A stretch of 64,000 nucleotides of DNA, from contig JAKSOW010000001.1 in NCBI GenBank assembly GCA_024405395.1, positions 6,277 through 70,276 on the forward strand, written 5' to 3'. The notes under the pieces were generated by a model. That model was not told the origin of the DNA, ran no database searches, and saw only the letters and a list, made by a program, of their open reading frames with translations. A program made the translations under genes and the position numbers. The first letter of the stretch is position 1; the number at the start of each line of letters is the position of its first letter. Positions 319-27,252 of this stretch are shown here, piece after piece. Origin of the DNA: Kiritimatiellia bacterium. GTDB lineage: Bacteria > Verrucomicrobiota > Kiritimatiellia > RFP12 > UBA1067.

Positions 319-332
319 ATTCCGGGACGACT

Positions 333-6048: not shown

Positions 6049-6078
6049 TGTCTTACATCCTTTTTCAATTTTACTAGC

Positions 6079-6612: not shown

Positions 6613-6639
6613 GATCAGTTCTCCTTTTTTTGTAAGAAA

Positions 6640-9551: not shown

Positions 9552-9553
9552 GA

Positions 9554-10195
9554 TTATTCGTCATCCTCTTCTTCTTGATTTTCCTCAAGCCATTTCTGAG
9601 CGGTGGCAACATTTTTCCAATCATCACCCGTCACGTATTCATAAGCTTCTTTCGCCGCCGCACGCGCAACACCATTACTGCTGGCAATAAGATGAACGAT
9701 GATATCAATAGACAAAGTAGGACGCAGATCGTTCAGTTGAAATGAAATTGATTCCATAACTTCACGATCACGAACCAACATCATGGTCTCCTCAATGAGT
9801 ACACCCTTTTCATGTTCATCCTCAATATCATTAATTGCCGAATCCCATTGATCCTGTGCCTCTGATCTAACGTCTTCATCGCGGTCAAGCAAAAACGGCA
9901 TCAACGCCCGTACAGATTTTTTTCCAAACCAGCCAATGGATTCAACACAACGCAAGCGAACTACTGCATTTTTCGAATTCTTGAGCTTTTCTACATAAGA
10001 CAATGCCTCCTGAAAATCTTCCTTCTCTACAGCATTCTCAAGATCAGAAACCTGCTTCTCTTCGCTAACCGTACATTCTGATGTCTCTACAACATTCTTT
10101 TGCATTTCCTTATCGGGTTCAGACTTGCCGCAACCGCTAAGTAGACAAACAACAACAGCAATACCGACTATATTCTTCATTTCTATCACCTTCAT
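9554..10195 (-). CDS. HEAT/PBS-lyase-like repeat lipoprotein
   Basis: The ATG at 10195 overlaps the upstream TGA (ATGA). The N-terminus MKVIEMKNIVGIAVVVCLLSGCGK contains the lipobox LSGC. VRLRCVESIGWFGKKSVRALMPFLLDRDEDVRSEAQDQW is HEAT-like. The tail is acidic. It is a paralog of 11688..12614. Confidence 0.75.
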   Translation of the reverse strand: MKVIEMKNIVGIAVVVCLLSGCGKSEPDKEMQKNVVETSECTVSEEKQVSDLENAVEKEDFQEALSYVEKLKNSKNAVVRLRCVESIGWFGKKSVRALMPFLLDRDEDVRSEAQDQWDSAINDIEDEHEKGVLIEETMMLVRDREVMESISFQLNDLRPTLSIDIIVHLIASSNGVARAAAKEAYEYVTGDDWKNVATAQKWLEENQEEEDDE

Positions 10196-11685
10196 GGCAA
10201 TGAGGCCAGAACTGTAACGTTGCCTTGACCCTGAATTTTTATTGTTCCTGTGATTTTGCCAGAATTCAAATCCAGACTTAACAAACCGATGACCACATTT
10301 TTCCCAGATTTCCTGAAAACAGGCAACCAGGTCGTTACGCAATCGGTACTCTCAACCAACACACTCTTGGTATTGATGCGAAGTCTATTTGGAAACGTTC
10401 CCTTTATTGAAACTACACCTGTCTTCGCTGCCGCCTTCTTCATTACCAACTGTAGTTCTGTTTCATTTTCAAGGATAATCTTACGGTCCATAACATAAAG
10501 ACTCGCAGGAGACTTTGCTGTCCAAAGTGTATGAGAGAAACAAATTCTACGCGACACACCATCTGTAGATATGAAATTTCCTATCAGCTGCCCTTCGGAT
10601 GTAACAGCTAACAAAAATGAACATCCCACTCCCGTTCCTGAAATTTCCAATATACCATCCGATGACAAACTTTTCCACCCTTTAGAAACCGCCTTCAACT
10701 TGTTATCGACACCATCATACTGGATTTTTGCCTGTCCTTTCTCCGAGAGTGTTAAGGATATTATTCCTTGCATCTCGCCATCCTCTGACAATATAAATCC
10801 ACTTGTCTTCACCGACTTTGTGATCGTGAAGGCAGAACAGACTTTAGAAACTGGAACCACAGTAATCGTTAGGGTAAATGTCTGACTGCCCTTCTCTATT
10901 CCTACATCGCGTTTTTCAGCCAGAATCCAAGAACTGGTAAACGTACCTGCTTTAGTTGGATTTCCTTTAAACAAAACCCGTTTAGAGACAGAATCATAGG
11001 ATACCTTTATTCCCGAAGGGAGTCTTCCAGAAGCCTTCTTTACCTGCACCATCCCACCTACCGTATTGGTTACTTGAAAGTATTCCTCAAAAGGAATATG
11101 CTGAACTGACTCAACAGTTGCATTCCGAAGCGCAAACGCCGGCATTGGCTGATCCATAGGTGCCGATGGTCTAGGAGAATCTAAAGTAGAGGAAAATGCA
11201 AAGCCCGAATCAACCAAAACCTTCTCAACTGAACTAGTCAACTGCAACGCTAGGGGCCCAAGTTTCACCGGCATGTATCCATCGCGACCAACAAAAGCTC
11301 TCTCAATTATCGTTCCATCTGTTTTTGGCCAATAGATGCAAAACAACGGCAACTCATTAATCCACGGATTAATAGATCGTATGAATTTAAGTCCTGCTTT
11401 TGCATCTGAATCGCCATCATGACATACGCTCATTATTATGCGGTGGTCATAAAGCCATTCCTGAAAATCAGCACTATCTAGTGCTGACTTCATCTGATTG
11501 CACATTGGACATGAGCTACGTGCCCACAATAACAACATAGGAGTGCATGTCTCGTTAGCATAGCTAAGACCCTTGGAAAACCCCGCATTCCACTCACCTA
11601 AACATATCTCTCCCCTAGAAAAAGAAAAAGCCCATACACTGAAAACTAGAATGATATTAAAAGACAGTACCAAAATTTTTTTCAT
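10192..11685 (-). CDS. exported thioredoxin-fold (CxxC) + Ig-like domain protein
   Basis: The signal peptide is MKKILVLSFNIILVFSVWAFS. The CxxC context is MLLLWARSSCPMCNQMKSAL. ELPLFCIYWPKTDGTIIERAFVGRDGYMP is conserved with the paralogs. The Ig-like segment is GRLPSGIKVSYDSVSKRVLFKGNPTKAGTF. The start lies 2 nt after the upstream TAG. Confidence 0.8.
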   Translation of the reverse strand: MKKILVLSFNIILVFSVWAFSFSRGEICLGEWNAGFSKGLSYANETCTPMLLLWARSSCPMCNQMKSALDSADFQEWLYDHRIIMSVCHDGDSDAKAGLKFIRSINPWINELPLFCIYWPKTDGTIIERAFVGRDGYMPVKLGPLALQLTSSVEKVLVDSGFAFSSTLDSPRPSAPMDQPMPAFALRNATVESVQHIPFEEYFQVTNTVGGMVQVKKASGRLPSGIKVSYDSVSKRVLFKGNPTKAGTFTSSWILAEKRDVGIEKGSQTFTLTITVVPVSKVCSAFTITKSVKTSGFILSEDGEMQGIISLTLSEKGQAKIQYDGVDNKLKAVSKGWKSLSSDGILEISGTGVGCSFLLAVTSEGQLIGNFISTDGVSRRICFSHTLWTAKSPASLYVMDRKIILENETELQLVMKKAAAKTGVVSIKGTFPNRLRINTKSVLVESTDCVTTWLPVFRKSGKNVVIGLLSLDLNSGKITGTIKIQGQGNVTVLASLP

Positions 11686-11687
11686 TG

Positions 11688-12614
11688 CTACTCTCCTTCA
11701 GAATTTTGCCCTTCTTCTTTTGAAATCGTTTTATCAAAATTTTTTCTCTCTGGTATATCGTACTCTGTGTCGTTTATGATTTTCATACCAGAAATATCTA
11801 TTTCTGGGTCAAATACCTCTGGGTGAAGAGATGCTCGATAGACTGGTATGTCATCAGATTCTTCTGACAAATCAATGTTCTCATTGACCCAGGCTTGTGC
11901 AGCCTCAAACGTCGTATACTCCTCCCCTGTTAGAAAAGAATAAGACTCAAGTGCTACATCCACAACATCTGGATTCTCACTATTAATCAAGGCTACCACT
12001 GACTCAATCGCCGTAAAAGTTGATAGTTCATTCAAATTAAAAGCGATATCTTCCAACATATCACGGTCTTTAATCACACCCATTGTAGCTTCAATAATTG
12101 TAGCCTTAACACGCTCATCTTCGACTTGACCTAAAGCAGATAACCAAAGATCTTGTGCAGCATCACGAACATTTTCATCCTGATCAACAAGAAAAGGCGT
12201 CAACTCAGGAAGGGCTTCCTCATTAAACCAACCAAGTGCCTCAATGGCTCTAAGGCGAACAATCTCATTTGTGGAATTTCCCATTAGTTTTGCAAGTTCT
12301 TGAACTGTAGTGAAATCCTCGGCATTAAGAGCTTTATCAACTTCATCAAACAACCGTCGATCCTGTGGCGAAACCTCATCAGGAATTTGAGATCGATCAA
12401 CTTTTCGTTTTTCCCGCCTTAATGTATTAACTTTAATGCTCGTATCCCTTATCTCAACTAGTTGCTTAACATTTGCCGGTTTGCGCCTTGATATACGCAT
12501 TCCAGTTCCAGATCTATTAGTTTGCCCCTCAGTCTCTTTATTGGTTGAAATATTGAAAATGAAAATGGCTATCGTGAATAAAATTACTGAAACTAAAAAA
12601 ATCTTAATTTTCAT
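11688..12614 (-). CDS. HEAT/PBS-lyase-like repeat protein with N-terminal membrane anchor
   Basis: The ATG at 12614 lies 1 nt after the upstream TAA. The N-terminus is MKIKIFLVSVILFTIAIFIFNIS. VRLRAIEALGWFNEEALPELTPFLVDQDENVRDAAQDLW aligns closely with the 9554 gene product. The tail is acidic. Confidence 0.75.
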   Translation of the reverse strand: MKIKIFLVSVILFTIAIFIFNISTNKETEGQTNRSGTGMRISRRKPANVKQLVEIRDTSIKVNTLRREKRKVDRSQIPDEVSPQDRRLFDEVDKALNAEDFTTVQELAKLMGNSTNEIVRLRAIEALGWFNEEALPELTPFLVDQDENVRDAAQDLWLSALGQVEDERVKATIIEATMGVIKDRDMLEDIAFNLNELSTFTAIESVVALINSENPDVVDVALESYSFLTGEEYTTFEAAQAWVNENIDLSEESDDIPVYRASLHPEVFDPEIDISGMKIINDTEYDIPERKNFDKTISKEEGQNSEGE

Positions 12615-12615
12615 T

Positions 12616-13692
12616 TTACTTCTTCCTTTTACGCGTTGGGAAAACGATACCTTCTCCATAAGGATATTTGATAATCGCTTTCTTACGCAAATCGCGAATA
12701 GTATTCCCGATAACCTCTTCCTGTCGTTCCTTAATCAATTCACGTTTTATGAATTCAGGATCCTCGTCAAATATTATGGCTGTTCGCCAAACAATGCGGG
12801 CAAGATGGCGAGCAAATACTGTTCCATCACCATTCACATCTTCTTTATCGCCCAAAAATTTTACTATCTCTATCCCATCATCGGTTGTCATAACATCTGT
12901 AATCTCACCAGGCTTTAAACATACTATGCTCTCCCAATAAACTGGGGCTTCCATTGAGAAGTCATCAGCCGTGCAAAAACCCAAGTCACCTCCTGGATTT
13001 TTTTCTTCATCCTGTGAAAAATCATCAGCCAGCTCAGAGAAATCTGCACCAGCCCTTGCCCTTGCCAAAACGTTAGTTGCTTCTGCATAAATGTGAATAT
13101 TTGTCTGCACCATACGCGCATTGTATGCAATCGTTTGCGCCACTTGATTTGAAATTGCTTCGGCAGATACCAGCATTTGAGTTGCCAATGCCGTCTTAAT
13201 GTAGTGCTGGCTCCATAAATCCAGCTCTAGCATCTCTTCAATCACATGACAATTAACACCTTTATCAAAGGAACAAAGTTGTTTGAAAGACATTCCTTTT
13301 TTACCATAGCTTAACGCATATTTTTCCTGAAGCTTCAACCTTTCTTCTTTTGTTGGCACAAAATTCATCCGTTTTGCTTCACTTGCCAACAATGCCATCG
13401 GAAAAAAGTTTTGATATTCTTTCTCCCGAAACCGCGTCTTTAGCATTTGAAACTTATGATCTGCTATAGTACCGACTTTCGCTTTGGCAAAACTCAATTT
13501 TGCCATAATTTGACCCTCATATTGTCCCTTGGTCAACTTTATACCATTGACTTCTACAAGCACCGAGTCAGAGTTGAGGCTACTATATGTTTCTCTCGTG
13601 CCTTTCGCACCATAAACATTGTTTATCCCGAAAGTAAGAAACAACAAAACTATACGAACAATTTTAAATGGAGTATAAGTTTTCATTTCCAC
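12616..13692 (-). CDS. exported SurA-N/parvulin-type peptidyl-prolyl cis-trans isomerase
   Basis: The N-terminus is signal-like (IVRIVLLFLTFGINNVYG). The PpiC/parvulin signature region is GGDLGFCTADDF...LKPGEITDVMTTDDGIEIVKFLG. The preceding helical region resembles the SurA/PrsA N-terminal chaperone part. Confidence 0.8.
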   Translation of the reverse strand: MEMKTYTPFKIVRIVLLFLTFGINNVYGAKGTRETYSSLNSDSVLVEVNGIKLTKGQYEGQIMAKLSFAKAKVGTIADHKFQMLKTRFREKEYQNFFPMALLASEAKRMNFVPTKEERLKLQEKYALSYGKKGMSFKQLCSFDKGVNCHVIEEMLELDLWSQHYIKTALATQMLVSAEAISNQVAQTIAYNARMVQTNIHIYAEATNVLARARAGADFSELADDFSQDEEKNPGGDLGFCTADDFSMEAPVYWESIVCLKPGEITDVMTTDDGIEIVKFLGDKEDVNGDGTVFARHLARIVWRTAIIFDEDPEFIKRELIKERQEEVIGNTIRDLRKKAIIKYPYGEGIVFPTRKRKK

Positions 13693-13705
13693 TGCTATCT
13701 CAAAT

Positions 13706-13744
13706 GTAAAAAGCGGGAGGAAGCACTTTCATGCATCCACCCGC
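13706..13744 (-). terminator. candidate rho-independent terminator after the 13779 gene
   Basis: On the minus strand, GCGGGTGGA pairs with TCCTCCCGC (one T:T mismatch) and is followed by TTTTT. A second perfect hairpin, TTATTCGCC-GAAG-GGCGAATAA, lies at 13757..13778 directly after the stop. Confidence 0.45.
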
Positions 13745-13778
13745 CTTGTCTCAATTATTCGCCCTTCGGCGAATAACC

Positions 13779-14657
13779 TTACTTAGCATACGCAGGCATA
13801 TAGGCAGCAACACCCTTAGTACCATTGGCAATCTTCTTGCTGTACTTCAGCTTCCACGTACCATACGCAGCAAGCAGTTCAGAACCAGCAGATTCGGTAA
13901 GATCGTCACAAACCGCACCGAAATCATCGCAGATACCAACAAGACCAGCCCAGTGATAGTCACACTCACGAATGGTAGGATCACCCGTCACCGAACCGGC
14001 AACACTACCAGAAACGTTCTTGACAACACCCTTCTTGACATCAAACGAACCAAGACCAGCGAGCTTAAGGTCGTAATCACTGAAATCAGCCGTTTCAGCA
14101 TTAAAACCACCTGCCCCATCCGAGACATTACGCCAAGCATAGTCAATCCAACCCATGTCACCATTCTCATCCTTGGCGTACACCTGCTCCTTACCAGCGA
14201 AGTCCCAGACCATGGAAACCTTGTTGGCCTTCTTCTCGTAACGATAAACCTCATCGCCAACAGCCGACTTGAAGTCATTAGCCTTGTATTTCTCAACAGT
14301 CTTACCGCCTTCGACAACAGTCTCCGTAGTGAGGTAATCACCAATCACGTGCTGGAAGCCCTTATCGGTACGCCAAATCACGTACTGGGCACCATCAAAA
14401 TCGCAAGCCGACTTGCAGTTCCAAATGATACCCTTCAGCGTACGCTTACCATTCTTGTAGTAGGAGACACACGTTTTCGTCTCACCCAAGCACGCACTAC
14501 CACCCTTGCACTTAAGGGTCTTGGGAGCGAGCGTCTTAAGCTTGATCGTAAGATCATAAGCCTGACAATCCGAACTCGGATCAATCGTGCAGAGGTCACC
14601 TGCAAAAACACCAATACCAGCAGCTGCAACAGCGGCAGCAATCATCAACTTCTTCAT
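13779..14657 (-). CDS. exported Cys-rich protein, unknown family (paralog of 5266..6048)
   Basis: The best start is the ATG at 14657 (MKKLMIAAAVAAAGIGVFAG, a signal peptide), preceded by an A-rich/GGA region. It shares motifs with the 5266 gene (see that entry). The overlapping plus-strand ORF 13731..14732 is judged an antisense artefact. Confidence 0.75.
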   Translation of the reverse strand: MKKLMIAAAVAAAGIGVFAGDLCTIDPSSDCQAYDLTIKLKTLAPKTLKCKGGSACLGETKTCVSYYKNGKRTLKGIIWNCKSACDFDGAQYVIWRTDKGFQHVIGDYLTTETVVEGGKTVEKYKANDFKSAVGDEVYRYEKKANKVSMVWDFAGKEQVYAKDENGDMGWIDYAWRNVSDGAGGFNAETADFSDYDLKLAGLGSFDVKKGVVKNVSGSVAGSVTGDPTIRECDYHWAGLVGICDDFGAVCDDLTESAGSELLAAYGTWKLKYSKKIANGTKGVAAYMPAYAK

Positions 14658-14928: not shown

Positions 14929-15046
14929 GTGGGAAATCAATTTTTTTTTCATTTTCTTTGTCACAACGCCACCAGGTGGATTTGCCTTGTAAGACTATTT
15001 AATGAGCGCACCATACACAATGCAAATGCAAAACTCTCTTGTTCAT

Positions 15047-15076
15047 AAACAGAACAGCTCGTCGGTTGACGAGCTG
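15047..15076 (-). terminator. candidate rho-independent terminator downstream of the bS22-like ORF
   Basis: A perfect 9-bp stem, CAGCTCGTC/GACGAGCTG (15055..15076), has a 4-nt loop and is followed on the minus strand by TTCTGTTT. It lies exactly at the high-GC/low-GC boundary. Confidence 0.5.
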
Positions 15077-15279: not shown

Positions 15280-16149
15280 TTAGAAGATGATCTTGTTGAG
15301 CGGCAGCTCAATGATGCCAGTAGCGCCCGCCGCGCTCAGAACCGGAATCAAATCGCGCACCTGCTTCTCCTCGACAACCGACTCCACCGCGAACCAGCCT
15401 GCGTCATTGAGCTTGTTCACCGTGGGCGCGTGCAACGCCGGAAGCGCCGCCACAATCTTATCGAGCTTCTTCTCAGGCGCGTTGAGCTTGATGAGCACGC
15501 GCTTCTGGGCTTCAAGCGCCGCCACAAGCAACATCTTGATCTGCTCGATCTTCGCACGCTTCGCCTTGTTGGCCCACGCCTTCTTGTTGGCGATGAGGCG
15601 CGTCGTCGACGTAAGGATCGTGTCGACGATGCGAAGGTTGTTCGCACGCAGCGACGAACCCGTCTCGGTAAGATCGACGATTGCGTCCACCAGCTCAGGC
15701 GCCTTCACTTCCGTGGCGCCCCAGCTGAATTCGACATCGGCCTTGACGCCGTTCTTCTTCAGATAACGCTTCACGATGCCCAGGGCTTCCGTGGAGATGC
15801 GCTTGCCCTGAAGATCCTTCACGCTCTTGATCTTGGAGTCGTTCGGAACCGCGAGAACCCAACGAACCGGATTGGACGTGGCCTTAGAATAGTTGAGCTC
15901 GCAGACGTCCTCGACGTCCGAACCATTTTCGTACACCCAGTCCCAACCGCAGATGCCCGCATCCAGGAGACCCATCTCAACATAGCGGCTCATTTCCTGC
16001 GGACGGAGCAGGCGGCACTTGATCTCCGCATCATCAATCGTGGGGAAATAGGAACGCGACGAGCAGGAAACATTAAACCCTGCGCGCTTGAAAAGCGCGA
16101 AGGTCGATTCCTGAAGGCTACCCTTCGGCAGACCAAGAACAATTGCCAT
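15280..16149 (-). CDS. hisG: ATP phosphoribosyltransferase (long form)
   Basis: The 289-aa product starts [25 protein letters not shown]...[26 protein letters not shown], a typical HisG N-terminus. The C-terminal regulatory-domain-length extension is present. Confidence 0.9.
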
Positions 16150-16247: not shown

Positions 16248-16829
16248 TCAAAGAGCCTGCAGCGAACGAAGCTCCGCCATTTCCGCACGACGTGCGCGTG
16301 CCCAAGCCGCCACATCGACTTCGGGCGGCAATGTGGGCGTCACATAAGGCATGCCGCATGTTGCGCAGCAGGCACCTTTGTTCAGCGGAGCACCACAAGA
16401 GGGACATCTCGTCTCAAGCACTTCGCCACAAATGGCGCACCGCTTGGCACCCACGAATGGCGCAGCCATGCCGGCAATCGGGCGGAGAAAAAGACGCCCC
16501 TCCAGCACATAGGGTGCATTCGAAAGGCAATGTGCGGACGGACAAAAGCCAATCAGCGCATCCGCAGGCAAAACCATGGAAGGCAAGGCGGGCATTGCAT
16601 TCTGGACTGCATCAGCCACTTTCTTGGCCGCGGGTTCCAAAGACACGCCCACTTTCTCGGCAAACTTCTTGATTACCTCTTCCGAGAGTTTTGTACCGTC
16701 TCCAGCTTCGAACATTGAAATGGCCGGCTGTTTGCAGCCAAGTTCACGCGCCAACGCGGACTGGGAAATACCCTGTTCGCGGCGTGCCTGGCCGATGCTG
16801 CGGCAAATCTCTGGAGAAATGTTCTTCAC
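16248..16829 (-). CDS. XRE-family helix-turn-helix regulator with C-terminal Cys-rich (zinc-ribbon-like) region
   Basis: The HTH is GISQSALARELGCKQPAISMFEAG. The C-terminal half contains CxxC pairs (CAICGEVLETRCPSCG...CCATCG). Confidence 0.8.
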   Translation of the reverse strand: MKNISPEICRSIGQARREQGISQSALARELGCKQPAISMFEAGDGTKLSEEVIKKFAEKVGVSLEPAAKKVADAVQNAMPALPSMVLPADALIGFCPSAHCLSNAPYVLEGRLFLRPIAGMAAPFVGAKRCAICGEVLETRCPSCGAPLNKGACCATCGMPYVTPTLPPEVDVAAWARARRAEMAELRSLQAL

Positions 16830-16894
16830 GTTACGTCTACTTTCGTCGGACGGCTAATAGTATGCTCTTTTTTCCGCCCAAAAGCAAGCATGAG

Positions 16895-17001
16895 TTATAA
16901 ACAGTTATAAACAGCCTTATAAACAATATGAGTTATAAACAACCTTTCATAACCATGTTTATAACCTACTTATAAACAACTGTTTATAACCTTGTGTATA
17001 A
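16895..17001. repeat. array of eight TTATAAACA-type 9-mers (operator or DnaA-box-like cluster)
   Basis: Forward TTATAAACA lies at 16895, 16905, 16917, 16933 and 16970. Reverse TGTTTATAA lies at 16956 and 16981. A degenerate TGTGTATAA lies at 16993. The segment 16970..16989 is a perfect inverted pair separated by 2 nt. The array sits 65-170 nt upstream of the XRE gene start. Confidence 0.85.
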
Positions 17002-17035
17002 GTTGTATATCCTTTGTTGGCTAAGCAATAACAAT

Positions 17036-17063
17036 GGGGCACATCTACTTGAGATAGTGCCCC
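17036..17063 (-). terminator. candidate terminator hairpin downstream of the methyltransferase gene
   Basis: A 7-bp GC-rich stem, GGGGCAC/GTGCCCC, has a 14-nt loop and is followed on the minus strand by ATTGTTATT. The T-tract is weak. Confidence 0.3.
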
Positions 17064-17112
17064 AATGCGTCCAAAAAAGCCAGACGCTACAGTTTGTGCC
17101 AATCAAACCGGC

Positions 17113-18375
17113 TTATTCGCCTTTGGCCTTGCAGCCTGGATACACAAAGAGTCTGCAATCGATCGGTCCGTTGAAGAACGGCACGCGCGCAATGTAATAG
17201 AGTTCCACAAGCTTCGCAAGATCCGGGTTTCCGGTGATCAAGCCGCCCGTCATTCCCGCACACTTGTCATGCATGAACGTGCCAATGCGCGTATAGATCG
17301 GCTCCAGCTCGGCGGCATCGCCCAGACGAATGCCATACTCGGGATTGAAGAACACCACTCCGTTGGGTGAACTCTTGGAACAGTCAGCCTCAGGGTTCGC
17401 CAAAGGCGGCACTGGCGTGTCGCCAAAATCGCAGGCCTTGAATGTGATGTACTCGTTGACGCCCGCTGCGTGCGCATTGATCTGCGCATTCTGAACCGCC
17501 TCGGGAGAGATGTCCGTCGCGTAGATAGGCGGCAGATTGTCCGTCTTCTCGTTTTCGGCGGCCTCCAGGACCATATCCTTCCAGATTTGCTCGGGCGTGA
17601 CGCCAAAACGCTGACGCGGAGCCGAACGCGGAGCCGTTTCGCCGGGAATGATCTGGTTCCACCCCTTTATCGACATGAAGGCAAAACGGCTGCGCAACGA
17701 GCCCGGCGCACGGCCGATGGCGGCCAGTGCCGCCTCAATGGCCGGCGTGCCGGAGCCGCACATCGGGGAAATGAAAGGCGTCTTGCGATCCCACTTGAGC
17801 GCATCGATGCAGGCGGCCGCCAAGGTCTCCTGCATAGGCGCCGAGCCCGGAATCTTGCGGTAGCCGCGTTTGGAAAGCGGGGAACCGCTTGTATCCAAAT
17901 AGATGATCACACGCCGATCTTCCCAATGCACGAAAACGGCGGCACCAAGGTCATAGTCGGGACCCGAGTCCGGACGCCGCCCCACCTTGCTGCGGATTCG
18001 GTCGGCAATGGCGTCCTTGGTCACAAGCGCCGGCAGACGCGTATCGCGCACGGTGTCATTATGGACAATCGACGAAACCGAAAAATAGCCATCCGCATCA
18101 AAGAGGTTTTCCCAGTCAATGGAGGCCACCTTGTCGTACAATTCGCGGATATGGCGGCAAGTCCCCCGCAGGAGCGGCACCAGGACACGGTGTGCCGTGC
18201 GCAGACGAAGATTAAGGCGCAGCATATCCCGCATGGCACCGCGAACGACAACGGTGTTGTCACTCTTGTCGATCACCTTGTATCCCATGCCCTCAACTTC
18301 CTGAATCGTCCAGGGAGCCAGATGCTTGGCGCACGAAATGATGATGGGATAGTTCTTATCTGTCCACAGTTTCAT
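17113..18375 (-). CDS. THUMP-domain class I SAM-dependent RNA methyltransferase (RlmL/RlmK N-half-like, COG0116 type)
   Basis: The best start is the ATG at 18375, preceded by AGGAG; the track ORF extends further upstream without support. The SAM motif I-like sequence is ISPMCGSGTPAIEAAL. The motif IV-like sequence is FFNPEYG, a variant of NPPY. Confidence 0.8.
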   Translation of the reverse strand: MKLWTDKNYPIIISCAKHLAPWTIQEVEGMGYKVIDKSDNTVVVRGAMRDMLRLNLRLRTAHRVLVPLLRGTCRHIRELYDKVASIDWENLFDADGYFSVSSIVHNDTVRDTRLPALVTKDAIADRIRSKVGRRPDSGPDYDLGAAVFVHWEDRRVIIYLDTSGSPLSKRGYRKIPGSAPMQETLAAACIDALKWDRKTPFISPMCGSGTPAIEAALAAIGRAPGSLRSRFAFMSIKGWNQIIPGETAPRSAPRQRFGVTPEQIWKDMVLEAAENEKTDNLPPIYATDISPEAVQNAQINAHAAGVNEYITFKACDFGDTPVPPLANPEADCSKSSPNGVVFFNPEYGIRLGDAAELEPIYTRIGTFMHDKCAGMTGGLITGNPDLAKLVELYYIARVPFFNGPIDCRLFVYPGCKAKGE

Positions 18376-18479
18376 GGTATCTCCTACTAAAGGGCACCCT
18401 TTGGCCCGATATTTTGGACAAGAGGCATTCCAGAAGCGTTTTTCTTCCAGAATGCCCTTTATTTCAGCGAATATTACTA

Positions 18480-19574
18480 TCAGCTGATGCGCAGCGGCAT
18501 CATAACGTACAGGAACGGCACCGAACACTTGATCAATGCCGGCGAAGAGCCGTTCTTGAGCTCGATGTAGACTTCATCCTCGTCAATGGCCTTCAGCGGA
18601 TCCATCACAAACTGGGGATTGAAGACAATCTCGATCGTCTCGCCGTCATACTTGATCGGCACCGTATCACGGGCCGCACCCACATCGGCGGCGGCTGACG
18701 CCACGGTGAGGCGATTGGACTCAAACGTGAGACGCGTAGAATTGGACTCATCCATCGTCATGACGCTGACGCGGTCAAGGGCCTCCAGCAGAAGCTTGCG
18801 CTCCACGGTGACGCGCTCGGTGCAGCCGGTGGGGATGACCTGACGATAGTTGGGATAGACATCATCCAGAAGCTTCGAGTAGATCTGCGTGTCGCCCAGA
18901 TTGAAGGACACCTGCGAGCGTTCCACGGTGACGCGCACATCGCCATCGGACGAAAGCGAACGCTGAAGCTCGGAGACCACCTTCGTGGGGAGCACGATGT
19001 CCTTCTCCGCATCGGCGGGGAATTCGACCTCATGCTCGACCAAGGCCAAACGCCGCCCATCCGTGGCCACCATGGTGAGCTTCGCGTCCTTGAAGCTCAT
19101 CAGAACGCCCTTCAGGGTCTTGCGCGTATCGTCCTGCGAGGCCGCGTACGAGGTCTTGCGCAGCATTTCGCGAAGCGCCATCTGCTTGATGATGTAGGCA
19201 AACGTGCCGGAATCCTTGGGGAGCTGCGGGAAGTCGGCGACATTCATGCCGGCGATGTTGAACACGGCGGAACCCGCCGACACAACCGCCTTGTCCTCCG
19301 CATCGGTCTCGAGCTCAACGGGGCCTTCCGCCGCCTTGGCGATCGTGGCCGCCAAAAGCTTCACGGGGAGCGTGGTCGCGCCTTCAGCCAGCACTTCGCA
19401 GGGAACGACGCTGCGGATCGAAATGTCAAGATCCGTGGTGGTGAGGAAGAGCTGCTTGTCCTTCGCCTCGATCAGCACATTCTGGATGATCTGCAGTGTA
19501 CCCTTTGACACCACGATGTTCTGAACCTTCTTGAGGCCTTCCAGAAACTTGGAACGTATAATCCTGATTTTCAT
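18480..19574 (-). CDS. dnaN: DNA polymerase III beta sliding clamp
   Basis: The 364-aa product starts MKIRIIRSKFLEGLKKVQNIV...LFLTTTDLDISI, a typical DnaN N-terminus. The gene lies immediately downstream of dnaA. Confidence 0.95.
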   Translation of the reverse strand: MKIRIIRSKFLEGLKKVQNIVVSKGTLQIIQNVLIEAKDKQLFLTTTDLDISIRSVVPCEVLAEGATTLPVKLLAATIAKAAEGPVELETDAEDKAVVSAGSAVFNIAGMNVADFPQLPKDSGTFAYIIKQMALREMLRKTSYAASQDDTRKTLKGVLMSFKDAKLTMVATDGRRLALVEHEVEFPADAEKDIVLPTKVVSELQRSLSSDGDVRVTVERSQVSFNLGDTQIYSKLLDDVYPNYRQVIPTGCTERVTVERKLLLEALDRVSVMTMDESNSTRLTFESNRLTVASAAADVGAARDTVPIKYDGETIEIVFNPQFVMDPLKAIDEDEVYIELKNGSSPALIKCSVPFLYVMMPLRIS

Positions 19575-19860
19575 TGCATGCTCCTGACACCATTTCGCCG
19601 GACAGTCCCGCTGTCAGCGATTCCTAAGATTGTACCTAATATTCCTTCTAAAGTAAAGAATGAATAATACTAATATTAGGTTGTTCAATAACTCCAATAA
19701 CTTCTTCAAGTACTGTAAAATCAAGGCCTGCGTGACTTTTCAGCTGTTCATTTCCCATTCAGTCGGATGTTCAGCGCTGTTGATGATTCGGCGGGCTTTA
19801 GACAACTGTCCACAAGTGGATGGGTTCTGCACAACTTCTCTACAGGGGATGAACAGATTA
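19575..19860. promoter_or_regulatory. dnaA-dnaN intergenic region with AT-rich tract and DnaA-box-like palindrome (possible oriC part)
   Basis: This 286-nt gap has an AT-rich run at about 19621-19725. CTGTCCACA (19806..19814) matches 7 of 9 positions of TTATCCACA. It abuts AGTGGAT to form TCCAC-AA-GTGGA. TGAACA/TGTTCA motifs are also present. Confidence 0.35.
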
Positions 19861-21297
19861 TCATTCGAGGACGTCGGAGATCTGGCGGCCCAGCTTGGAC
19901 ACAATCTGGCCGATTTCCTGCTTGAGGTCGGCCTCGACGCTGATGCGCTTCTGGATCTGCTGCGAACCGTAGAAAATCGTGGTGTGCTTGCGGTCGAAGG
20001 CCTTACCGATCGTCGGCAGCGAATCCGTGGTGAGCTTGCACGCCAGGAACATCGCGACTTGGCGGGGCTGGACAAGGGCCTGGGTGCGTCCGGGCGCCTT
20101 GATGTCCTTCACCGTGACGCCGTAGTGCTCCGCCACCGCATTGATGACCGCTTCCGGCGTAATGCTCTTGATTGTCACTTCCTCCTCTATCATGTCCTTG
20201 AGGAGATATTTCGAGATCTCGATGGTGAGCGGCGTATCGGGATTGACGTCCATGAAGGTGGTTACCCGGTTCAGGGCACCTTCAATGGCCCGCACATGCG
20301 AACGGATGTTTTCCGCAATGTAGTTGAGGATATCGTCCTGGATCAGACGATGGCGGGCCTGCATCTTGGACCTGAGGATCGCCAGACGCGTCTCATACGA
20401 GGGGGATTCGATTTCCACCACCATGCCCTGCTGGAAGCGCGAGATCAGCCTGTCCTCCAGACCTCCCTGGAGCTCCTTTGGCGCCTGGTCGCAGGTCATG
20501 ACTATCTGCTTGTTGTACATGAGCAGACTGCTGATGGTGTTGAAGAATTCCTCCTGGAAGCTCTTCTTGCCGACGATGAACTGAACGTCGTCGATGAGCA
20601 GAAGATCGTATTTCCTGTAGCGGGCGCGAAACGCGGGAAGCGCCGCCCCGGCGAGCGCATTGACGTATTCGTTGAGGAACGTCTCGGACGTGATGTAGCA
20701 AACCGACGCCTCGGCATTATGCTTCATGACATAATGGCCGATGGCCTCCATCAAGTGCGTTTTGCCCAGACCTGTGCCGCCCCAGATGAAAAGCGGATTG
20801 TAGGCGGTCCTTCCAAGCCCCTTCGCAACGGCGGTAGCCGCAGCATGGGCGAAGGAATTTGACGGGCCCCTCACGAAGTTCTCGAACGTATAGTTCTCGA
20901 GGAGCGGCAGAGTGGAAGGCAGTACACGCGCACGCCGAGGCGTCGGAGCTTTGGGAGCCGGCTTTTCCGAATTGGTCTGAACGGGAAGAACGGGCGGAAC
21001 CTCTACGGTTTTCTTGGTTTCCTCTTTCTTGATGACCTCAAAGACCACTTTGATGCCATCCCCCAGACCTGCCGCCCGAATCGTCTCCTCCAGAGCCTTG
21101 GCGTAGAGCCCCGTGAACCAATCCCTCTTCATCTCCGTGGTGACGCCGATCCTGAATTCGCTGCCCACCAGACTCTGAGTGAGGAACTGAGGAGAATGCA
21201 GTTCCCAGCGATTGATTTCCTCAGTCGTTTTCAGGCTCATTCTGTAGCTGGAAGCGATGGCTTGCCAGACAGATGTAAGGTTGCTTGTTTCTGACAT
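19861..21297 (-). CDS. dnaA: chromosomal replication initiator protein DnaA
   Basis: The Walker A motif is GGTGLGKTHLMEAIGH. The Walker B region is LLLIDDVQFIVGKK. The C-terminal DNA-binding signature is FDRKHTTIFYG. Confidence 0.95.
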   Translation of the reverse strand: MSETSNLTSVWQAIASSYRMSLKTTEEINRWELHSPQFLTQSLVGSEFRIGVTTEMKRDWFTGLYAKALEETIRAAGLGDGIKVVFEVIKKEETKKTVEVPPVLPVQTNSEKPAPKAPTPRRARVLPSTLPLLENYTFENFVRGPSNSFAHAAATAVAKGLGRTAYNPLFIWGGTGLGKTHLMEAIGHYVMKHNAEASVCYITSETFLNEYVNALAGAALPAFRARYRKYDLLLIDDVQFIVGKKSFQEEFFNTISSLLMYNKQIVMTCDQAPKELQGGLEDRLISRFQQGMVVEIESPSYETRLAILRSKMQARHRLIQDDILNYIAENIRSHVRAIEGALNRVTTFMDVNPDTPLTIEISKYLLKDMIEEEVTIKSITPEAVINAVAEHYGVTVKDIKAPGRTQALVQPRQVAMFLACKLTTDSLPTIGKAFDRKHTTIFYGSQQIQKRISVEADLKQEIGQIVSKLGRQISDVLE

Positions 21298-21435
21298 GAT
21301 CTTGTTGTCCTAGTGGACACTATTTAACCATATTTCCCGAACAAAACCACGCAAAAGAAATGAAAAGAAATGAACAAGTTGTGAACAGATACCTGTTCAT
21401 AGCTTAATGCAGGCTTTGCCTATCTGACTTGCGGA
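21298..21435 (-). promoter_or_regulatory. dnaA upstream region: extended -10-like TGGTTAAAT plus three TGAACA/TGTTCA sites
   Basis: The minus strand reads ...CTATGAACAGGTATCTGTTCACAACTTGTTCATTTC...ATATGGTTAAATAGTGTCCACTAGGACAACAAGATCATG. The TGn-extended -10 lies at 21322..21330. Confidence 0.35.
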
Positions 21436-23775
21436 TCAGTGGAAGAACTTCCGCATTTCCTCTTCCGTGTGGCAGGCGAGCAGATCCTGAGCCCCATTTT
21501 CGCTGCGAAGCTTCGAGCTGATGTAGGCCATCAGCTGGAGATAAGGCGACTGGGCCGTCTCAGGCGCCAAGGTCAGCACAATGATCTGAATGACCGAATG
21601 ATCAATGGTCTCATAGTCCGCGATGATGCCGTTTGAGTTCTCCGTGTTGTCCACGATGGCCACTGCACCAACGATCTCGTCCACGGCATCGGTACGGCCA
21701 TGCGGCACGGCAATGCCATGGTCCAATCCTGTTCCCATGGATTCTTCACGTGAGAAGACGGCCTCCTGGGCAGTCTGCACATCCTTGACGTGGTTCCCCG
21801 TTGCGTTCTTGACGGCCAGAACAAGTTCCTCAATTGCCTCACGCTTCGAATTGGCCTTGAACTTGGGCAGCATCACGAAGTTCTTGAGGTTCTTGGCGGC
21901 AGATCCAAGCACCTCCTTCTTGTCGTCCTGCTGGATGATGAGCTTTTCGATTGTGCCCTTCTCCTGCACAGGCTTGGAAATAACCTGAGCCAGCTTGTTC
22001 ATCTGCGAGACGACTTCCATCCAGGCCTGACGCACGACCGCCTCTTCCTCCGGCGTGCAGAACACCTGGATCTCCTTGCCCGTGCGCGTAATGGAAATCT
22101 CAATCGAATCCATCGACACTTCCCAGATGTCAAGATTGATTTCACGCGCCAGACGGCAGGTGAAGAAACCTTCTCTACGGAATTCGTCAACCAGCTTTTT
22201 GGCCATGATGGCGGCGACCTGCATGTCAGGCAGCTCGAAGATTACCGGACGCGACTCCTGCATGTTTTCCTTCTGCTTGCGCACGCCCTTGCGGTCGCTC
22301 TTGAAGAGCGCCACCAAGGCAGGCGGGGCAACAACGGTCGTGATGAGCGTCATGAGGATGCCGATGCCGAAAATCTCCTGCGACAGATAGCCGTTCGAAA
22401 GACCAAGGCCGGCGATGATGAGCGCCACTTCGCCACGGGGAATCATGCCCGTGCCAATGCGCACGCCGCCCAGCAGATTGAATCCGCAGAACATGGCGGG
22501 AATGGCACAGCCCGCCACCTTGGCGAAGACGGCCAACACGGTGTAGATGGCGCCAAAGTAGAGAACCGGCTTCGACATCAACGCCGAGCAGTCCACCATC
22601 ATGCCCATGACGCAGAAGAACACGGGAACGAGGAACGTGTAGACGGGAGCCAGCGTTTCCTGGATCATGTGCTTCAGGTCCGTGCGCGAAAGGGCCAGAC
22701 CCATGACGTAGGCGCCAATGATCATGGCCAATCCCATGAACTCGAAGAACCCGGCGAGAATCAGCGAGAGACCAAATGCCAAGGTGGCGATGGCCTGCGG
22801 ATTCTTGAAGAGCTTGAGCAGCCAGGAGATCTTGCGGGCGAGAAGCACGCCCACCAACGTGGCGCCCAGCCAGACGCCGAAGGCCTTGATGGCGACAATG
22901 CCGATGGCGCCCCAATTGACGCCGGCACTGGCCTCTCCGCCCTTTGCCGCCGCAGCCATCGTCGCCGCGATGACGCCGTTGCCGATGGCCAGGACAATCA
23001 GACCCAGAACGTCGTCAATCACAGCACCGGCCATGATCGAGACGCCCTCTTCCGAATCCATCTTCTTGCGCTCCGAAAGGATGCGTGCGGTGATGCCCAC
23101 CGAAGTGGCGGTCGACATGATGCCCATGTACATGGGGGCCGCATCCATCATCGCCTGAGCCAGCGGCATGGAGGAAAGCGCACCGAACTTAGCCGGGAAG
23201 AACTGCGGCAGCAGATAGACGGCACAGAGGTCGCCGAACAGGAACGACACGATAACGCCGCCCAGGCCAACCATCAGGCCGACGAACGAATACTTGAGGA
23301 AGAGCTTGAGATTGGTCTCAAGGCCCGAAAGGAAAAGAAGAATCACGGACGCCAAAGTGGCGATGCCGTACAAGGCGGGGCTTGTGGCGTCGAACATGAC
23401 GTTGTGGCCAGCCATCGTGCCGAACATGGCCGTGGCCGCCCCACCCGCCGCCTCGTTCATGGCCCGCAGAGCGGCACCGTTGAAGAGACCGTATTTGAAG
23501 AGACCATCGCCAAACCCGATGCCGCCCAATGCCCACGGGCCAATGACAATGCCGGCGGCAAGTTCGCCAAGGATCGACGGCAGCTTGAAGAAGGAGATGA
23601 GGGTGCCGCCGAGTTTGGCGGCGAAGATGATGATGCCGATCTGCAGCACCAGGAACATCATTTCCTCTACACGGGGCAAACCAAAATTCGGGTAAGCGGG
23701 AGCAGCCTCATGCGCAAACACGCCCATCGCAACCAGTGAAAACGCGATGGCAAAAAACAGTTTCTTGTTTTTCAT
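21436..23775 (-). CDS. CPA2-type cation/proton antiporter fused to a C-terminal PTS EIIA(type 2, PtsN/Fru-like) domain
   Basis: The N-terminal ~470 aa are polytopic, with the Kef/NapA-like sequence ILGELAAGIVIGPWALG. The C-terminus GTGLDHGIAVPHGRTDAVDEIVGAVAIV matches the EIIA-2 phosphorylatable-His region. Confidence 0.85.
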   Translation of the reverse strand: MKNKKLFFAIAFSLVAMGVFAHEAAPAYPNFGLPRVEEMMFLVLQIGIIIFAAKLGGTLISFFKLPSILGELAAGIVIGPWALGGIGFGDGLFKYGLFNGAALRAMNEAAGGAATAMFGTMAGHNVMFDATSPALYGIATLASVILLFLSGLETNLKLFLKYSFVGLMVGLGGVIVSFLFGDLCAVYLLPQFFPAKFGALSSMPLAQAMMDAAPMYMGIMSTATSVGITARILSERKKMDSEEGVSIMAGAVIDDVLGLIVLAIGNGVIAATMAAAAKGGEASAGVNWGAIGIVAIKAFGVWLGATLVGVLLARKISWLLKLFKNPQAIATLAFGLSLILAGFFEFMGLAMIIGAYVMGLALSRTDLKHMIQETLAPVYTFLVPVFFCVMGMMVDCSALMSKPVLYFGAIYTVLAVFAKVAGCAIPAMFCGFNLLGGVRIGTGMIPRGEVALIIAGLGLSNGYLSQEIFGIGILMTLITTVVAPPALVALFKSDRKGVRKQKENMQESRPVIFELPDMQVAAIMAKKLVDEFRREGFFTCRLAREINLDIWEVSMDSIEISITRTGKEIQVFCTPEEEAVVRQAWMEVVSQMNKLAQVISKPVQEKGTIEKLIIQQDDKKEVLGSAAKNLKNFVMLPKFKANSKREAIEELVLAVKNATGNHVKDVQTAQEAVFSREESMGTGLDHGIAVPHGRTDAVDEIVGAVAIVDNTENSNGIIADYETIDHSVIQIIVLTLAPETAQSPYLQLMAYISSKLRSENGAQDLLACHTEEEMRKFFH

Positions 23776-23875: not shown

Positions 23876-25843
23876 TTAGTGATGTCCCCTTTTGATGATG
23901 ATGGCCAGAACCGAAATGTCGGCAGGATTGACGCCCGGAATGCGGCCCGCCTGTGCCAAAGTCTCCGGACGATACTTCTTCATCTTTTCCCGGCTCTCAT
24001 ACCTGATGGCCGGACACTTGTCGTAATCCAGCCAATGGGGAATCTTGATGTTCTCGTCGCGCTTGGCCCGTTCGGCGGCAATGTTCTCCTGGCGAATGTA
24101 GCCGGCGTAGTGGTGACGGATTTTCACCTGTTCAACCACAGGATCAGGAACCTGAATGGAAGAGCCGCCGATTTCGATCTCGGCGTTAGGGTTACCGTCA
24201 GGCTGAACAGACAATACGCGTTTCAGCTTTTTGTTGTCCTGCTCGATGGTGTTGATCATATCGGCAAACGATTTGGTTTCCTCCCGAATGACCTTCGGCA
24301 GAATGCCTACCCTTTCCGCTGCTTCCTGCAGGCGGTAGCGGGCATTGTCCTGACGCAGGATCAGGCGGCGCTCGGCACGTGATGTGAACATGCGATAAGG
24401 TTCATCGGTTCCCTTGGTGACCAAGTCATCGATCAATACGCCAATGTACGCATCCTGGCGGCTGATCACAAGCGGGCTTTCATGCTTGACCTTGAAGGCG
24501 GCATTTATTCCCGCCATGATGCCCTGGGCGGCAGCTTCCTCATAACCCGTTGTCCCGTTGATTTGGCCGGCAAAGAACAGACCGGATATACGCTTGGATT
24601 CCAGCGAATGCGTCAGCTCACGGGCGTCAATTCCATCATACTCAATGGCGTAGGCATACGCAAGGAATTCGGCGTGCTCCAGACCTGGAACGGAATGGAC
24701 CAGTTCTTCCTGAACCTGACGAGGAAGAGAGTTGGATAGACCATTAGGATAGATGATCTGCCCTGCACGATCTTCGGGTTCAAGGATGACATGATGACCA
24801 TCAACACCCGCGAATCTGACTATCTTATCCTCAATCGATGGACAATACCTGACGCCCGTTCCACTTATCATTCCACCATAAAGAGATGAATCCTTAAGAT
24901 GCGAACGTATGATTTCATGGCTGATTGGCGTTGTATGGGTTGCCCAACAGATAGCTTTAGCGGAATTCAAAGGCCACGGAGCGAACAAATCCGCATTGTT
25001 CCACGTGGAACAGTCCGTTGAACTGGATTCTGATGCGGAATTGGCATTGTTCCACGTGGAACAAAGACCAGAAATGGGTTCAGATGAAGCTAAATCATGG
25101 TTGTTCCACGTGGAACAATTGATTCCGGGTGTTAAACCATGGGAAAGGAGGTATCTGGTTCTGAGGGAGAAATAAGGCGGATTATCCTCTCCTTCCTGCG
25201 GTGTACACACCGAAAAGTCGCAGCTTGATGCCTTTAAGCGTGGCGGTGTACCTGTTTTAAGCCGAATAAGCTGAAAACCGAGTTTGGAAAGCGAATCGGA
25301 TAGCTGATTGACGGCTGGCCGCCCATCTCCGCCAGATTCCGTGCATTCCTTGCCAATGAATATCCGCCCTCGCAAAGCCGTTCCGGAGGTTATCACCAAA
25401 GCCTCACAGTTGATCAGTCCGTTCTTCTCGGTTCTGATTCCGGTTACGGTGTCATGATTGGTTATCACCTCAAGGGCGGCATCCTCGATCACGGTCAGGT
25501 TTTTGGTGCTGTTGACAACCAACTGCATGCGCCGTGTGTATTCGCTCTTGTCGCATTGTGCTCGTGTTGCCTGCACGGCTGGACCACGGCTCAAGTTCAA
25601 TGTCTTTTCCTGGAGCGAAGTGAGGTCGGTGTTGAATCCCATTTCGCCGCCCAACGCATCCAACTCAAACACCAGATGACTTTTGGCAAGTCCGCCAATG
25701 GAAGGATTGCAGGGCATACGCGCAATGGCAGACTTGAGCCCCGTAACCAAAAGGGTGTCAATGCCCATGCGTGCAGCGGCCAATGCCGCTTCGGCTCCGG
25801 CATGGCCTCCACCAACCACAACAATTGAAAAATCTGTTTTCAT
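23876..25843 (-). CDS. mnmG: tRNA uridine-5-carboxymethylaminomethyl modification enzyme MnmG (GidA), with an internal repeat insertion
   Basis: The FAD motif is [19 protein letters not shown]. Other conserved stretches are [12 protein letters not shown] and [19 protein letters not shown]. The segment between PPYFSLR and ICWATHTT is about 68 aa long. Confidence 0.95.
24997..25117. repeat. three perfect copies of the 16-nt palindrome TGTTCCACGTGGAACA inside mnmG
   Basis: Copies lie at 24997..25012, 25048..25063 and 25102..25117, with spacings of 51 and 54 nt (in frame). Each encodes CSTWNN in the mnmG frame. The sequences between the copies are unrelated to each other. Confidence 0.9.
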
Positions 25844-25933
25844 TGCAGATATTATAACATGCTTTAAGACAAAATATAAGAGATAACAGATAAAAGATAA
25901 ACGAGGGCCTCTGCTTTTCTCGATGAAATCTTT

Positions 25934-26174
25934 AAGACAGGATTTACAAGATTAACAGGATTTAGAAGCCTGACCGATTGAGATAATTAATGTGGCGATT
26001 GCAAGTCGTGGTCGGTGGGTTCATTGAAACCAGTCCTGTCTGTTTAATAGGCGTAGGTTCAGGTAGGACAACATTGACGATGCCGCCGCTAATGAGATAT
26101 TGCAGTATCCTCAATAAATAAAGCAACATCGGGGAAATCCTGTTAATCCTGTTAATCCTGTCGGAAATCAGGAT
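25934..26174. repeat. inverted clusters of ACAGGATT(T/A) / (A/T)AATCCTGT 9-mers flanking ~165 nt
   Basis: ACAGGATTT lies at 25937 and 25955. Three contiguous copies, AAATCCTGT-TAATCCTGT-TAATCCTGT, span 26135..26161. AAATCAGGAT follows at 26165. The arms GACAGGATTTACAAGATTAACAGGATTT and GACAGGATTAACAGGATTAACAGGATTT (reverse complement of the right arm) are near-identical. Confidence 0.7.
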
Positions 26175-27191: not shown

Positions 27192-27221
27192 TTGTATACA
27201 TATTAAAGGATATGCTATACT
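27192..27221 (+). promoter_or_regulatory. candidate promoter TTGTAT-18 nt-TGcTATACT for the beta-helix gene
   Basis: The extended -10, TGCTATACT, lies at 27213..27221 within an AT-rich tract. An AGGAGG RBS lies at 27241, and the ATG is at 27253. Confidence 0.4.
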
Positions 27222-27252
27222 TTAAGCATCGTCAACCGCAAGGAGGAAAGAA

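Follow-up and report, generated by a model that had tools for sequence, protein, structure and literature searches.

Dense clusters of DnaA boxes near oriC are described from Bacillus subtilis (Okumura et al. 2012, PMC3245932; Ishikawa et al. 2007, PMC2533591). Some of these oriC-proximal DnaA-box clusters (DBCs) control the gene beside them, and as a set they hold back initiation by binding DnaA. The stretch considered here, positions 16895 to 17001 of a 64-kb window (the whole stretch of DNA that was analysed, part of the chromosome of an uncultured gut bacterium of the Kiritimatiellae), carries an array of related 9-mers upstream of a gene for an XRE-family helix-turn-helix (HTH) and zinc-ribbon regulator, hereafter XRE. 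The array is real and strongly conserved. It is probably, though far from certainly, a phased array of nine Kiritimatiellae-specific DnaA boxes of the type TTAT-N-A-ACA, not TTAT-N-C-ACA, and a predicted DnaA-box cluster at the XRE promoter. Like the B. subtilis DBCs, it is a dense intergenic cluster near oriC and outside the unwinding region; a non-origin cluster of this kind is delimited by at least three to five intergenic boxes, and nine are present here. The absence of DnaA-trios and of an AT-rich block, the inward direction of the end boxes and the association of the array with XRE and not with dnaN account for this resemblance. The array differs from the DBCs in having A and not C at box position 6, in a nine-box register that is fixed clade-wide, in its constant pairing with the XRE and zinc-ribbon gene, and in being known here from sequence.

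Comparison with other described systems is instructive for parts of the locus. The dnaA-dnaN spacer of the clade resembles the basal unwinding system (BUS; Richardson 2016/2019; Pelliciari 2021, PMC8287927) in its tandem boxes, the spacing of about 12 nt from the upstream box, the middle-base triplets and the AT-rich DNA, whereas the array, without trios and an AT-rich element and with inward terminal boxes, resembles only the box part of that system. Experiments in Thermoanaerobacter tengcongensis showed DnaA binding to boxes of the TTATCNACA consensus, including TGTTGATAA- and TTATCAACA-type boxes like those found here (PMC1888806); that organism leaves position 6 free, whereas the present clade nearly excludes C (0-5%) and has a DnaA helix without Asp433. 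The datA and DARS loci of Escherichia coli are also non-origin DnaA-box clusters, and modulate initiator availability. Their promotion of ATP hydrolysis or nucleotide exchange depends on IHF or Fis sites and on boxes in a specific geometry. No such sites or geometry are recognisable in the array, and datA and DARS, unlike the array, are not coupled to a promoter. Autoregulated XRE/Cro repressors (SinR, HipB and the controller C-proteins of restriction-modification systems) share with the locus an HTH_3 regulator and repeated sites, including palindromes, beside its own promoter. Cro/C1-type HTH proteins usually autoregulate. Unlike the sites of these repressors, those of the array are the same as at dnaA, dnaN and gidA, are mixed in orientation and spacing, and lie in the window upstream of the -35 element. 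DnaA-box clusters, DnaA-regulated promoters and lineage-specific box variants are thus known already; new are their occurrence in this clade, a constant design of nine boxes, an obligatory partner gene and a DnaA that has lost Asp433. No paper on Kiritimatiellae replication origins was found in the searchable literature.

The array comprises seven exact copies of TTATAAACA, one copy with a single mismatch and one degenerate box. From the XRE side towards dnaA its boxes are as follows.

16895-16903, + strand: box 9, nearest the XRE promoter, TTATAAACA; relatives keep the position, with TGTTGATAA or TGTTTATAA when read along the dnaA-sense strand
16905-16913, + strand: box 8, TTATAAACA; 1-nt gap to box 9; of the 52 distinct arrays, 28 have this box, at -10 from the last one
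16917-16925, + strand: box 7, TTATAAACA; most close relatives have the weaker TTATCACAA at this position
16933-16941, + strand: box 6, TTATAAACA; position kept at -37/-38 in arrays
16944-16952, - strand: box 5, degenerate, TTATGAAAG, two mismatches; relatives have TTATTAACA or TTATAAACG
16956-16964, - strand: box 4, TTATAAACA
16970-16978, + strand: box 3, TTATAAACA; forms a 20-bp palindrome together with box 2
16981-16989, - strand: box 2, TTATAAACA; relatives mostly have the weak TTATCACAA
16993-17001, - strand: box 1, TTATACACA; the sole copy with the canonical C at position 6; the orthologous box in relatives is TTATCAACA

An earlier note on this DNA had described five forward and three reverse 9-mers in 107 nt, which agrees with the seven exact copies and box 1 (TGTGTATAA as read on the + strand, one mismatch from TTATAAACA in its reverse complement). 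The perfect inverted pair TTATAAACA-AC-TGTTTATAA of that note lies at 16970-16989, and the reverse complement of its degenerate copy, TTATACACA, does match the relaxed box TTATNCACA. The start-to-start distances of the eight copies are 10, 12, 16, 23, 14, 11 and 12 nt; the 10-16 nt spacing claimed in the note holds for six of these, while the single 23-nt gap is occupied by box 5, where relatives have a good box. The count against expectation that the note had proposed was run on the 64-kb window, in which all seven exact copies fall within 16895-16989 (0.08 expected from shuffles; none of 100 shuffles reached seven). Allowing one mismatch or none, 12 matches to TTATAAACA were recorded against 3.5 expected. 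There are nine matches to the consensus TTATNAACA (TTAT-N-A-ACA) against 0.72 expected, and no enrichment of the canonical E. coli box TTATCCACA (seven with up to one mismatch against 7.2). The array is the densest box cluster in the window and in about 1 Mb of related loci. TTATNAACA agrees with seven of the eight specified positions of TTATNCACA, and box 1 agrees with it fully; by its letters, the predicted box set as a whole fits the clade-specific TTAT-N-A-ACA, and only the copy called degenerate in the note fits TTATNCACA.

Relatives of the locus were collected by searching reference genomes with the DnaA protein, the matches being Kiritimatiellae (Planctomycetes-Verrucomicrobia-Chlamydiae group), mostly rumen and gut metagenome-assembled genomes (MAGs), and 80 metagenome loci were fetched with a clade-specific profile of DnaA domain IV; box counts cover 92 loci. 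The gene order of the window, gidA-nhaP-dnaA-dnaN-rlmL-array-XRE, is retained in eight reference loci at 49-69% DnaA identity, and the boxes of these relatives stand in the register 0+, 12+, 23-, 37+, 49+, 60-, 75-, 87- and 97- on the dnaA-sense strand. The array consensus is TTATNAACA, in relatives mostly TTATCAACA, and 52 distinct arrays were found. In 15 distinct arrays with a common ungapped register, information content averages 1.80 bits where the box is specified, compared with 1.38 at its position 5 and 0.79 for spacer positions. The XRE family forms 114 homologue sequence clusters, each named one of which is from Kiritimatiellae. Every XRE context that was read has the order dnaA-dnaN-rlmL, no or one extra gene, array and XRE, as do about 56 of the 80 metagenome loci, and the order, orientation and spacing of the boxes are shared by these loci, whose XRE identity ranges from 42 to 100%.

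Of 56 loci with XRE, 55 have the array directly upstream of that gene, and it stays there where rlmL is followed by an inserted HIT-family gene or 206-aa gene. L107/L108 is the one lineage in which XRE is missing from this position: its 3.7 kb after rlmL contain neither XRE nor array, and boxes are still present in the dnaA promoter and, in tandem, ahead of dnaN. As the array moves with the XRE promoter and co-occurs with XRE, it belongs to the control region of the XRE gene. Those relatives that are closest to the window have insertions in or after the array: in L001 boxes 4 to 6 are replaced by 78 bp in mid-array (6930-7010), and in L071 (6800-6997) and L073 (6050-6319) the XRE start is separated from its promoter by 150-300 bp rich in short repeats (units of TGGCAACA or CACAAAGA).

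The distribution of TTATNAACA over the related loci is one of the indications that DnaA may be the protein that reads the boxes.

280 bp upstream of dnaA: 100 observed, 1.5 expected; at least one box in 62 of 74 loci
dnaA-dnaN spacer: 39 observed, 2.4 expected; at least one box in 29 of 83 loci
400 bp upstream of gidA: 28 observed, 1.4 expected; at least one box in 20 of 39 loci
250 bp upstream of XRE: 200 observed, 1.5 expected; at least one box in 55 of 56 loci
419 kb of coding sequence: 7 observed, 8.3 expected; at least one box in 5 of 92 loci

The enrichment of TTAT-N-A-ACA in the regulatory regions is thus 15- to 130-fold, and coding DNA is not enriched. All four regulatory regions share a preference for G at -1 and have C at position 6 in 0-5% of their boxes; position 6 is A in 94% of the array boxes. 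The comparison with boxes of related species that the earlier note had suggested (about 90 loci) returns the same 9-mer in the dnaA-dnaN spacer, the dnaA promoter and the gidA upstream region, and the sites are not specific to the XRE promoter or to an XRE regulon. In the window the corresponding sites are these.

21369-21402, - strand: dnaA promoter boxes, CTATGAACA-N6-TGTTCACAA-C-TTGTTCATT
26618-26778, + strand: box pairs upstream of gidA, CTATCAACA-G-TTATTCACA (26618-26636) and TTATGAACT-AC-TTATGAACA (26759-26778)

The dnaA promoter arrangement is conserved in relatives as TTATNAACA-N5-TGTTNATAA-C-TTGTNNACA. The palindrome spacing there is N5, against N2 in the two 20-bp palindromes of the array, whose 9-mers lack symmetry, stand in direct as well as inverted orientation and are 1 to 7 nt apart. 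Such asymmetric sites, mixed in orientation and variable in gaps and palindrome spacing, fit an oligomerising monomeric domain and not a fixed HTH dimer. The three-box dnaA promoter is also kept in one relative of 67% GC, L007 (9850-9890 and 11383-11450), as TTGTGAACA-N6-TGTAGATAA-C-CTGTACACA; its dnaA has no following dnaN or AT-rich spacer, hence the origin of L007 must lie elsewhere. The 1.39-kb spacer upstream of gidA in the window (25844-27231) is low in GC and contains the two tandem box pairs at the point where gene orientation flips from - to +. It also holds a 33-nt inverted repeat (25931-25963 / 26135-26167, 88% complementary, 171 nt apart) built of ACAGGATT(T/A)A units, including CCTGTTAAT head to tail.

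The DnaA protein of the clade is altered where the changed box would be read. Base-specific contacts of DnaA are made by R399, P423, D433, H434, T435 and H439 (PMC2533591, PMC7561715), the recognition helix reading the TnCACA part and Arg399 the TTA part of the box (PMC5742627), and high conservation is reported for the D-H dyad (PMC5043019). When aligned to solved structures of domain IV, the window DnaA has Lys437 at the position of E. coli Asp433. All DnaA proteins of the clade (about 90 related loci and the window) lack Asp433 and have a one-residue deletion at the start of the recognition helix, just before the Asp433 position, while R399, P423 and H434 are retained. The helix motif is RKHTT in the window and KTHAT, KSHAT, KNHAT, REHTT or KSHPT in other members, whereas the outgroup DnaA proteins retrieved have (R/K)-D-H-(T/S/A)-T-V, except that of an unclassified MAG (L025, KTHPAV). 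The TTAT half of the box and Arg399 are both kept, and the altered helix goes with the changed 3' half. Boxes with C at position 6 are confined to Thr435 lineages (11 of 69 boxes, against none of 364 in Ala435 lineages), and the two loci with SHPT have T at this position.

The dnaA-dnaN spacer supplies a further DnaA-related context for the motif. In the published BUS a tandem box is followed by three or more trios, of which the first lies about 10-13 bp from the upstream box and 3'-GAT-5' is proximal (PMC8287927). In 50 of 84 related dnaA-dnaN spacers two boxes stand 1 nt apart on the dnaA-sense strand and are followed by a 3-nt spacer and a run of middle-T triplets, an arrangement that first-order Markov shuffles gave in no case. 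The run most often begins with CTA (also CTA/ATA-ATA), the complement of which is 3'-GAT-5', and is followed by AT-rich DNA (70-97%), always 101-135 bp before dnaN. Judged by its sequence, this layout likely reproduces the BUS, which is DnaA-specific. The conserved AT-rich part also has a TTTACT...TACAAT-like sequence and may hold the dnaN promoter. The counterpart in the window is the following.

19662-19700, - strand: likely oriC unwinding module, with two degenerate tandem boxes (19683-19700), a spacer, an intact trio-like run CTA-ATA-TTA-GTA-TTA-TTC (19662-19679) and then AT-rich DNA

The array lies 2.7 kb from this module and was compared with the same layout, in which one or more boxes are followed within 16 bp by three or more trios and by an AT-rich element, all placed 3' of 5'-TTATNNACA-3'. 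Neither flank of the array has trios or an AT-rich block, and it shows neither a BUS nor a duplex-unwinding element. On the dnaA-sense strand it starts with + boxes and ends with - boxes, so that the 3' sides of the terminal boxes point inward. One flank is the XRE promoter (about 50% GC); the other is the rlmL stop codon, which L003 and L006 have 3 to 4 nt away from box 1, and in the window a hairpin. A candidate for trios beside the array, TAATAGTAT near 16855, was rejected, being the conserved XRE -10 region on the wrong side of the boxes. The array itself is, by its predicted architecture, not the unwinding part of the origin. Of the two readings offered in the earlier note, a DnaA-box-like or titration cluster therefore gains from the occurrence of the same 9-mer at dnaA, gidA and the dnaA-dnaN spacer and from the altered DnaA helix, and loses its unwinding-origin part.

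The position of the array relative to the XRE promoter is equally regular.

16859-16887, - strand: putative XRE sigma-70 promoter, -35 TTGCTT (16882-16887), 17-nt spacer, -10 CATACT (16859-16864)

In all aligned relatives a promoter of the form TTGCCA-N17-CATACT/CATAAT comes right after the last box and is followed by the XRE start codon. A promoter and terminator consensus scan called nothing in 16700-17200, neither the XRE promoter nor the hairpin on the rlmL side, and the promoter is therefore deduced from conservation alone. No box overlaps the core promoter in the window, where the array lies upstream of -35. In one large sub-clade (type-B arrays) an extra box stands between -35 and -10, TTGTCC-GTTTATAAAATAAAGTC-CATAAT, as seen upstream of XRE in L102, L106, L115, L118, L122 and L146; the lineage of the window has lost this promoter-internal box. 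Its location is a repressor geometry, which points to repression by whichever protein binds the boxes. The AlphaFold2 model of XRE (mean predicted local distance difference test score 87.8) combines a Cro/C1-type HTH with a zinc-ribbon-rich domain and a helix at the C terminus. Only generic XRE HTH domains match its fold, best among them C.BclI, SinR and HipB (E about 4e-3), and the generic fold carries no information on the binding site. The fold search also gave a weak TniQ-like resemblance (template modelling score 0.25-0.29).

From the sequence we infer DnaA binding, a regulatory sign and titration along the following lines. Monomers of DnaA would bind each 9-mer via domain IV, and the bound protein would oligomerise over about 105 bp, ending 6 to 7 bp before the XRE -35 element. 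Transcription of XRE would then depend on the level or nucleotide state of DnaA, with repression likely in the lineages that have the extra box between -35 and -10. Like the oriC-proximal DnaA-box clusters, the array would keep as many as nine DnaA molecules bound at a distance of 2.7 kb from the probable unwinding site. If TTAT-N-A-ACA is the DnaA box of the clade, nine near-consensus copies would form the strongest DnaA site of the region, whatever else binds there.

The array and its conservation, the motif distribution, the unwinding-module-like architecture and the altered DnaA helix are observed; the last three, together with the T. tengcongensis precedent and the site geometry, point to DnaA, and several other observations weigh against it. 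The co-occurrence of array and XRE, and the movement of the one with the other, would be expected of an autoregulatory operator too. Box position 5 is A in all seven exact array boxes and G, C or T in the other box-like sites of the window, including those at 21369-21402 and 26618-26778. Position 5 is also linked to the XRE recognition helix, A tending to occur with Pro and C with Ser; with about four independent contrasts, three of which agree, this association is weak and non-significant. The tandem boxes of the window's own unwinding module (19683-19700) are degenerate, and the co-variation of DnaA residue 435 with C at position 6 amounts to two to three independent lineages on the DnaN tree. 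Co-variation was rejected as a discriminator, since the DnaA and XRE helices both differ between A5-rich and C5-rich lineages and the independent contrasts are too few.

An alternative that we consider unlikely makes the array an essential part of the origin, namely the main DnaA assembly region of a split origin, which loops to the boxes and AT-rich element of the dnaA-dnaN spacer. Split origins with looping occur in Bacillus subtilis and Helicobacter pylori. The density of the array, its location inside the cumulative GC skew minimum at 17-26 kb and its architecture, as fixed as expected for origin box arrays, would all suit such a function, but the flanks without an AT-rich element or trio run and the inward end boxes would not. 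In several relatives box 1 is only 3 to 4 nt past the rlmL stop codon, after gene insertions the array stays with the XRE promoter and not with dnaN-rlmL, L001 tolerates its 78-bp insertion mid-array, and L107/L108 keep dnaA promoter boxes and pre-dnaN tandem boxes with no array nearby.

Rather improbable is the view that dimers of the XRE/zinc-ribbon protein bind TTATNAACA-NN-TGTTNATAA palindromes and flanking half-sites in an autoregulatory circuit in which DnaA has no role. This is the operator for the adjacent HTH protein proposed in the earlier note, and it is favoured by the near-constant place of the array upstream of XRE, by their joint absence in L107/L108, by the two 20-bp palindromes with half-site centres 11 bp apart, by the box inside the type-B promoter, by a standard Cro/C1-type HTH like that of SinR, HipB and the C-proteins, and by the weak position-5 link to Pro/Ser. 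Against it, the dnaA promoter, the gidA upstream region and the box-box-trio module ahead of dnaN are all enriched in exactly this motif, with G at -1 there too. Besides the two N2 palindromes, most boxes of the array are direct repeats at variable distances. The palindrome spacing also differs between the array and dnaA, four array boxes run head-to-tail with gaps of 1 to 7 nt, unlike dimer operators, and the XRE core promoter of the window is free of boxes. Moreover, the position-5 association comes down to its few contrasts, and if TTATNAACA is the DnaA box of the clade, DnaA would bind the consensus copies of the array regardless.

A combined possibility, on which we place similarly little weight, is that the XRE protein may recognise TTATNAACA boxes too, especially the N2 palindromes and through position 5, and may act either against DnaA or together with it, both at the XRE promoter and perhaps at the origin. 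If so, array and XRE would make up a dedicated, clade-wide replication-control module built on a DnaA without Asp433. Sites of Spo0A and CtrA overlap DnaA boxes and offer a comparison for a module with shared boxes.

A chance or selfish repeat without host function (slippage repeats, plasmid or phage iterons, or the end of a mobile element), which the seven identical copies of the window could suggest as a recent duplication, is hardly credible and already contradicted by conservation, since place, order and orientation are kept over about 56 loci, the boxes are conserved while the spacers diverge, no rep, integrase or transposase gene lies near the array among its syntenic housekeeping neighbours, and an Rfam scan of the whole window matched no RNA family. 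Iterons, a mobile element, parS and FNR/CRP-type sites were each rejected on context or sequence.

The preferred assignment, a DnaA-box cluster at the XRE promoter, yields a probable DnaA box for the clade, TTAT-N-A-ACA, and a probable unwinding site in the dnaA-dnaN spacer. The loss of the near-universal Asp433 together with C at box position 6 makes the clade a natural experiment in DnaA specificity, and origin predictors that use TTATCCACA will misjudge these genomes. The conserved XRE/zinc-ribbon regulator by the origin is a candidate DnaA-controlled gene or DnaA-competing factor, and a candidate link of initiation to downstream physiology in abundant rumen and gut bacteria.

The genes and other features around the array are as follows.

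23876-25843, - strand: mnmG/gidA (Pfam/NCBIfam scans)
21436-23775, - strand: Na/H exchanger-EIIA fusion, nhaP (Pfam/NCBIfam scans)
19861-21297, - strand: dnaA (TIGR00362, 444 bits), with Lys437 at the Asp433 position
18480-19574, - strand: dnaN (three beta-clamp Pfam domains)
17113-18528, - strand: RlmL/THUMP-type RNA methyltransferase gene (Pfam UPF0020, THUMP, RlmL_1st; NCBIfam)
17036-17063, - strand: GC-rich hairpin after the rlmL-like gene, a possible terminator without U-tract, read in the sequence and mostly absent from relatives
16248-16829, - strand: XRE-family HTH and Cys-rich zinc-ribbon regulator, 193 aa (Pfam HTH_3, E 1.7e-11)
15280-16149, - strand: hisG (Pfam/NCBIfam scans)

The proximity to dnaN and dnaA claimed in the earlier note holds, at measured distances of 1.5 kb (dnaN) and 2.9 kb (dnaA) in place of its approximate 3-4 kb. 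Cumulative GC skew reaches a flat minimum between about 17 and 26 kb, a zone that spans the array, dnaA and the gidA upstream spacer, and the origin is therefore placed somewhere within this gene block. Positions 1-14000 of the window have 40-48% GC, compared with about 62% elsewhere, and a strongly negative GC skew of about -0.2; all genes there are on the - strand, and encode O-antigen ligase-like, HEAT-repeat, thioredoxin-like and metalloprotease-like proteins. This block may be an acquired island. Very long open reading frames are present on the + strand at 37854-48383 (3509 aa) and 49537-55584 (2015 aa). The related motifs that the note had listed in other intergenic regions are present at 15040, 23789 and 26770; in the spacer downstream of hisG (15040-15051) they are overlapping box-like 9-mers, TGTTCATAAACA (equal to TTATGAACA on the - strand) and TCATAAACA on the + strand.

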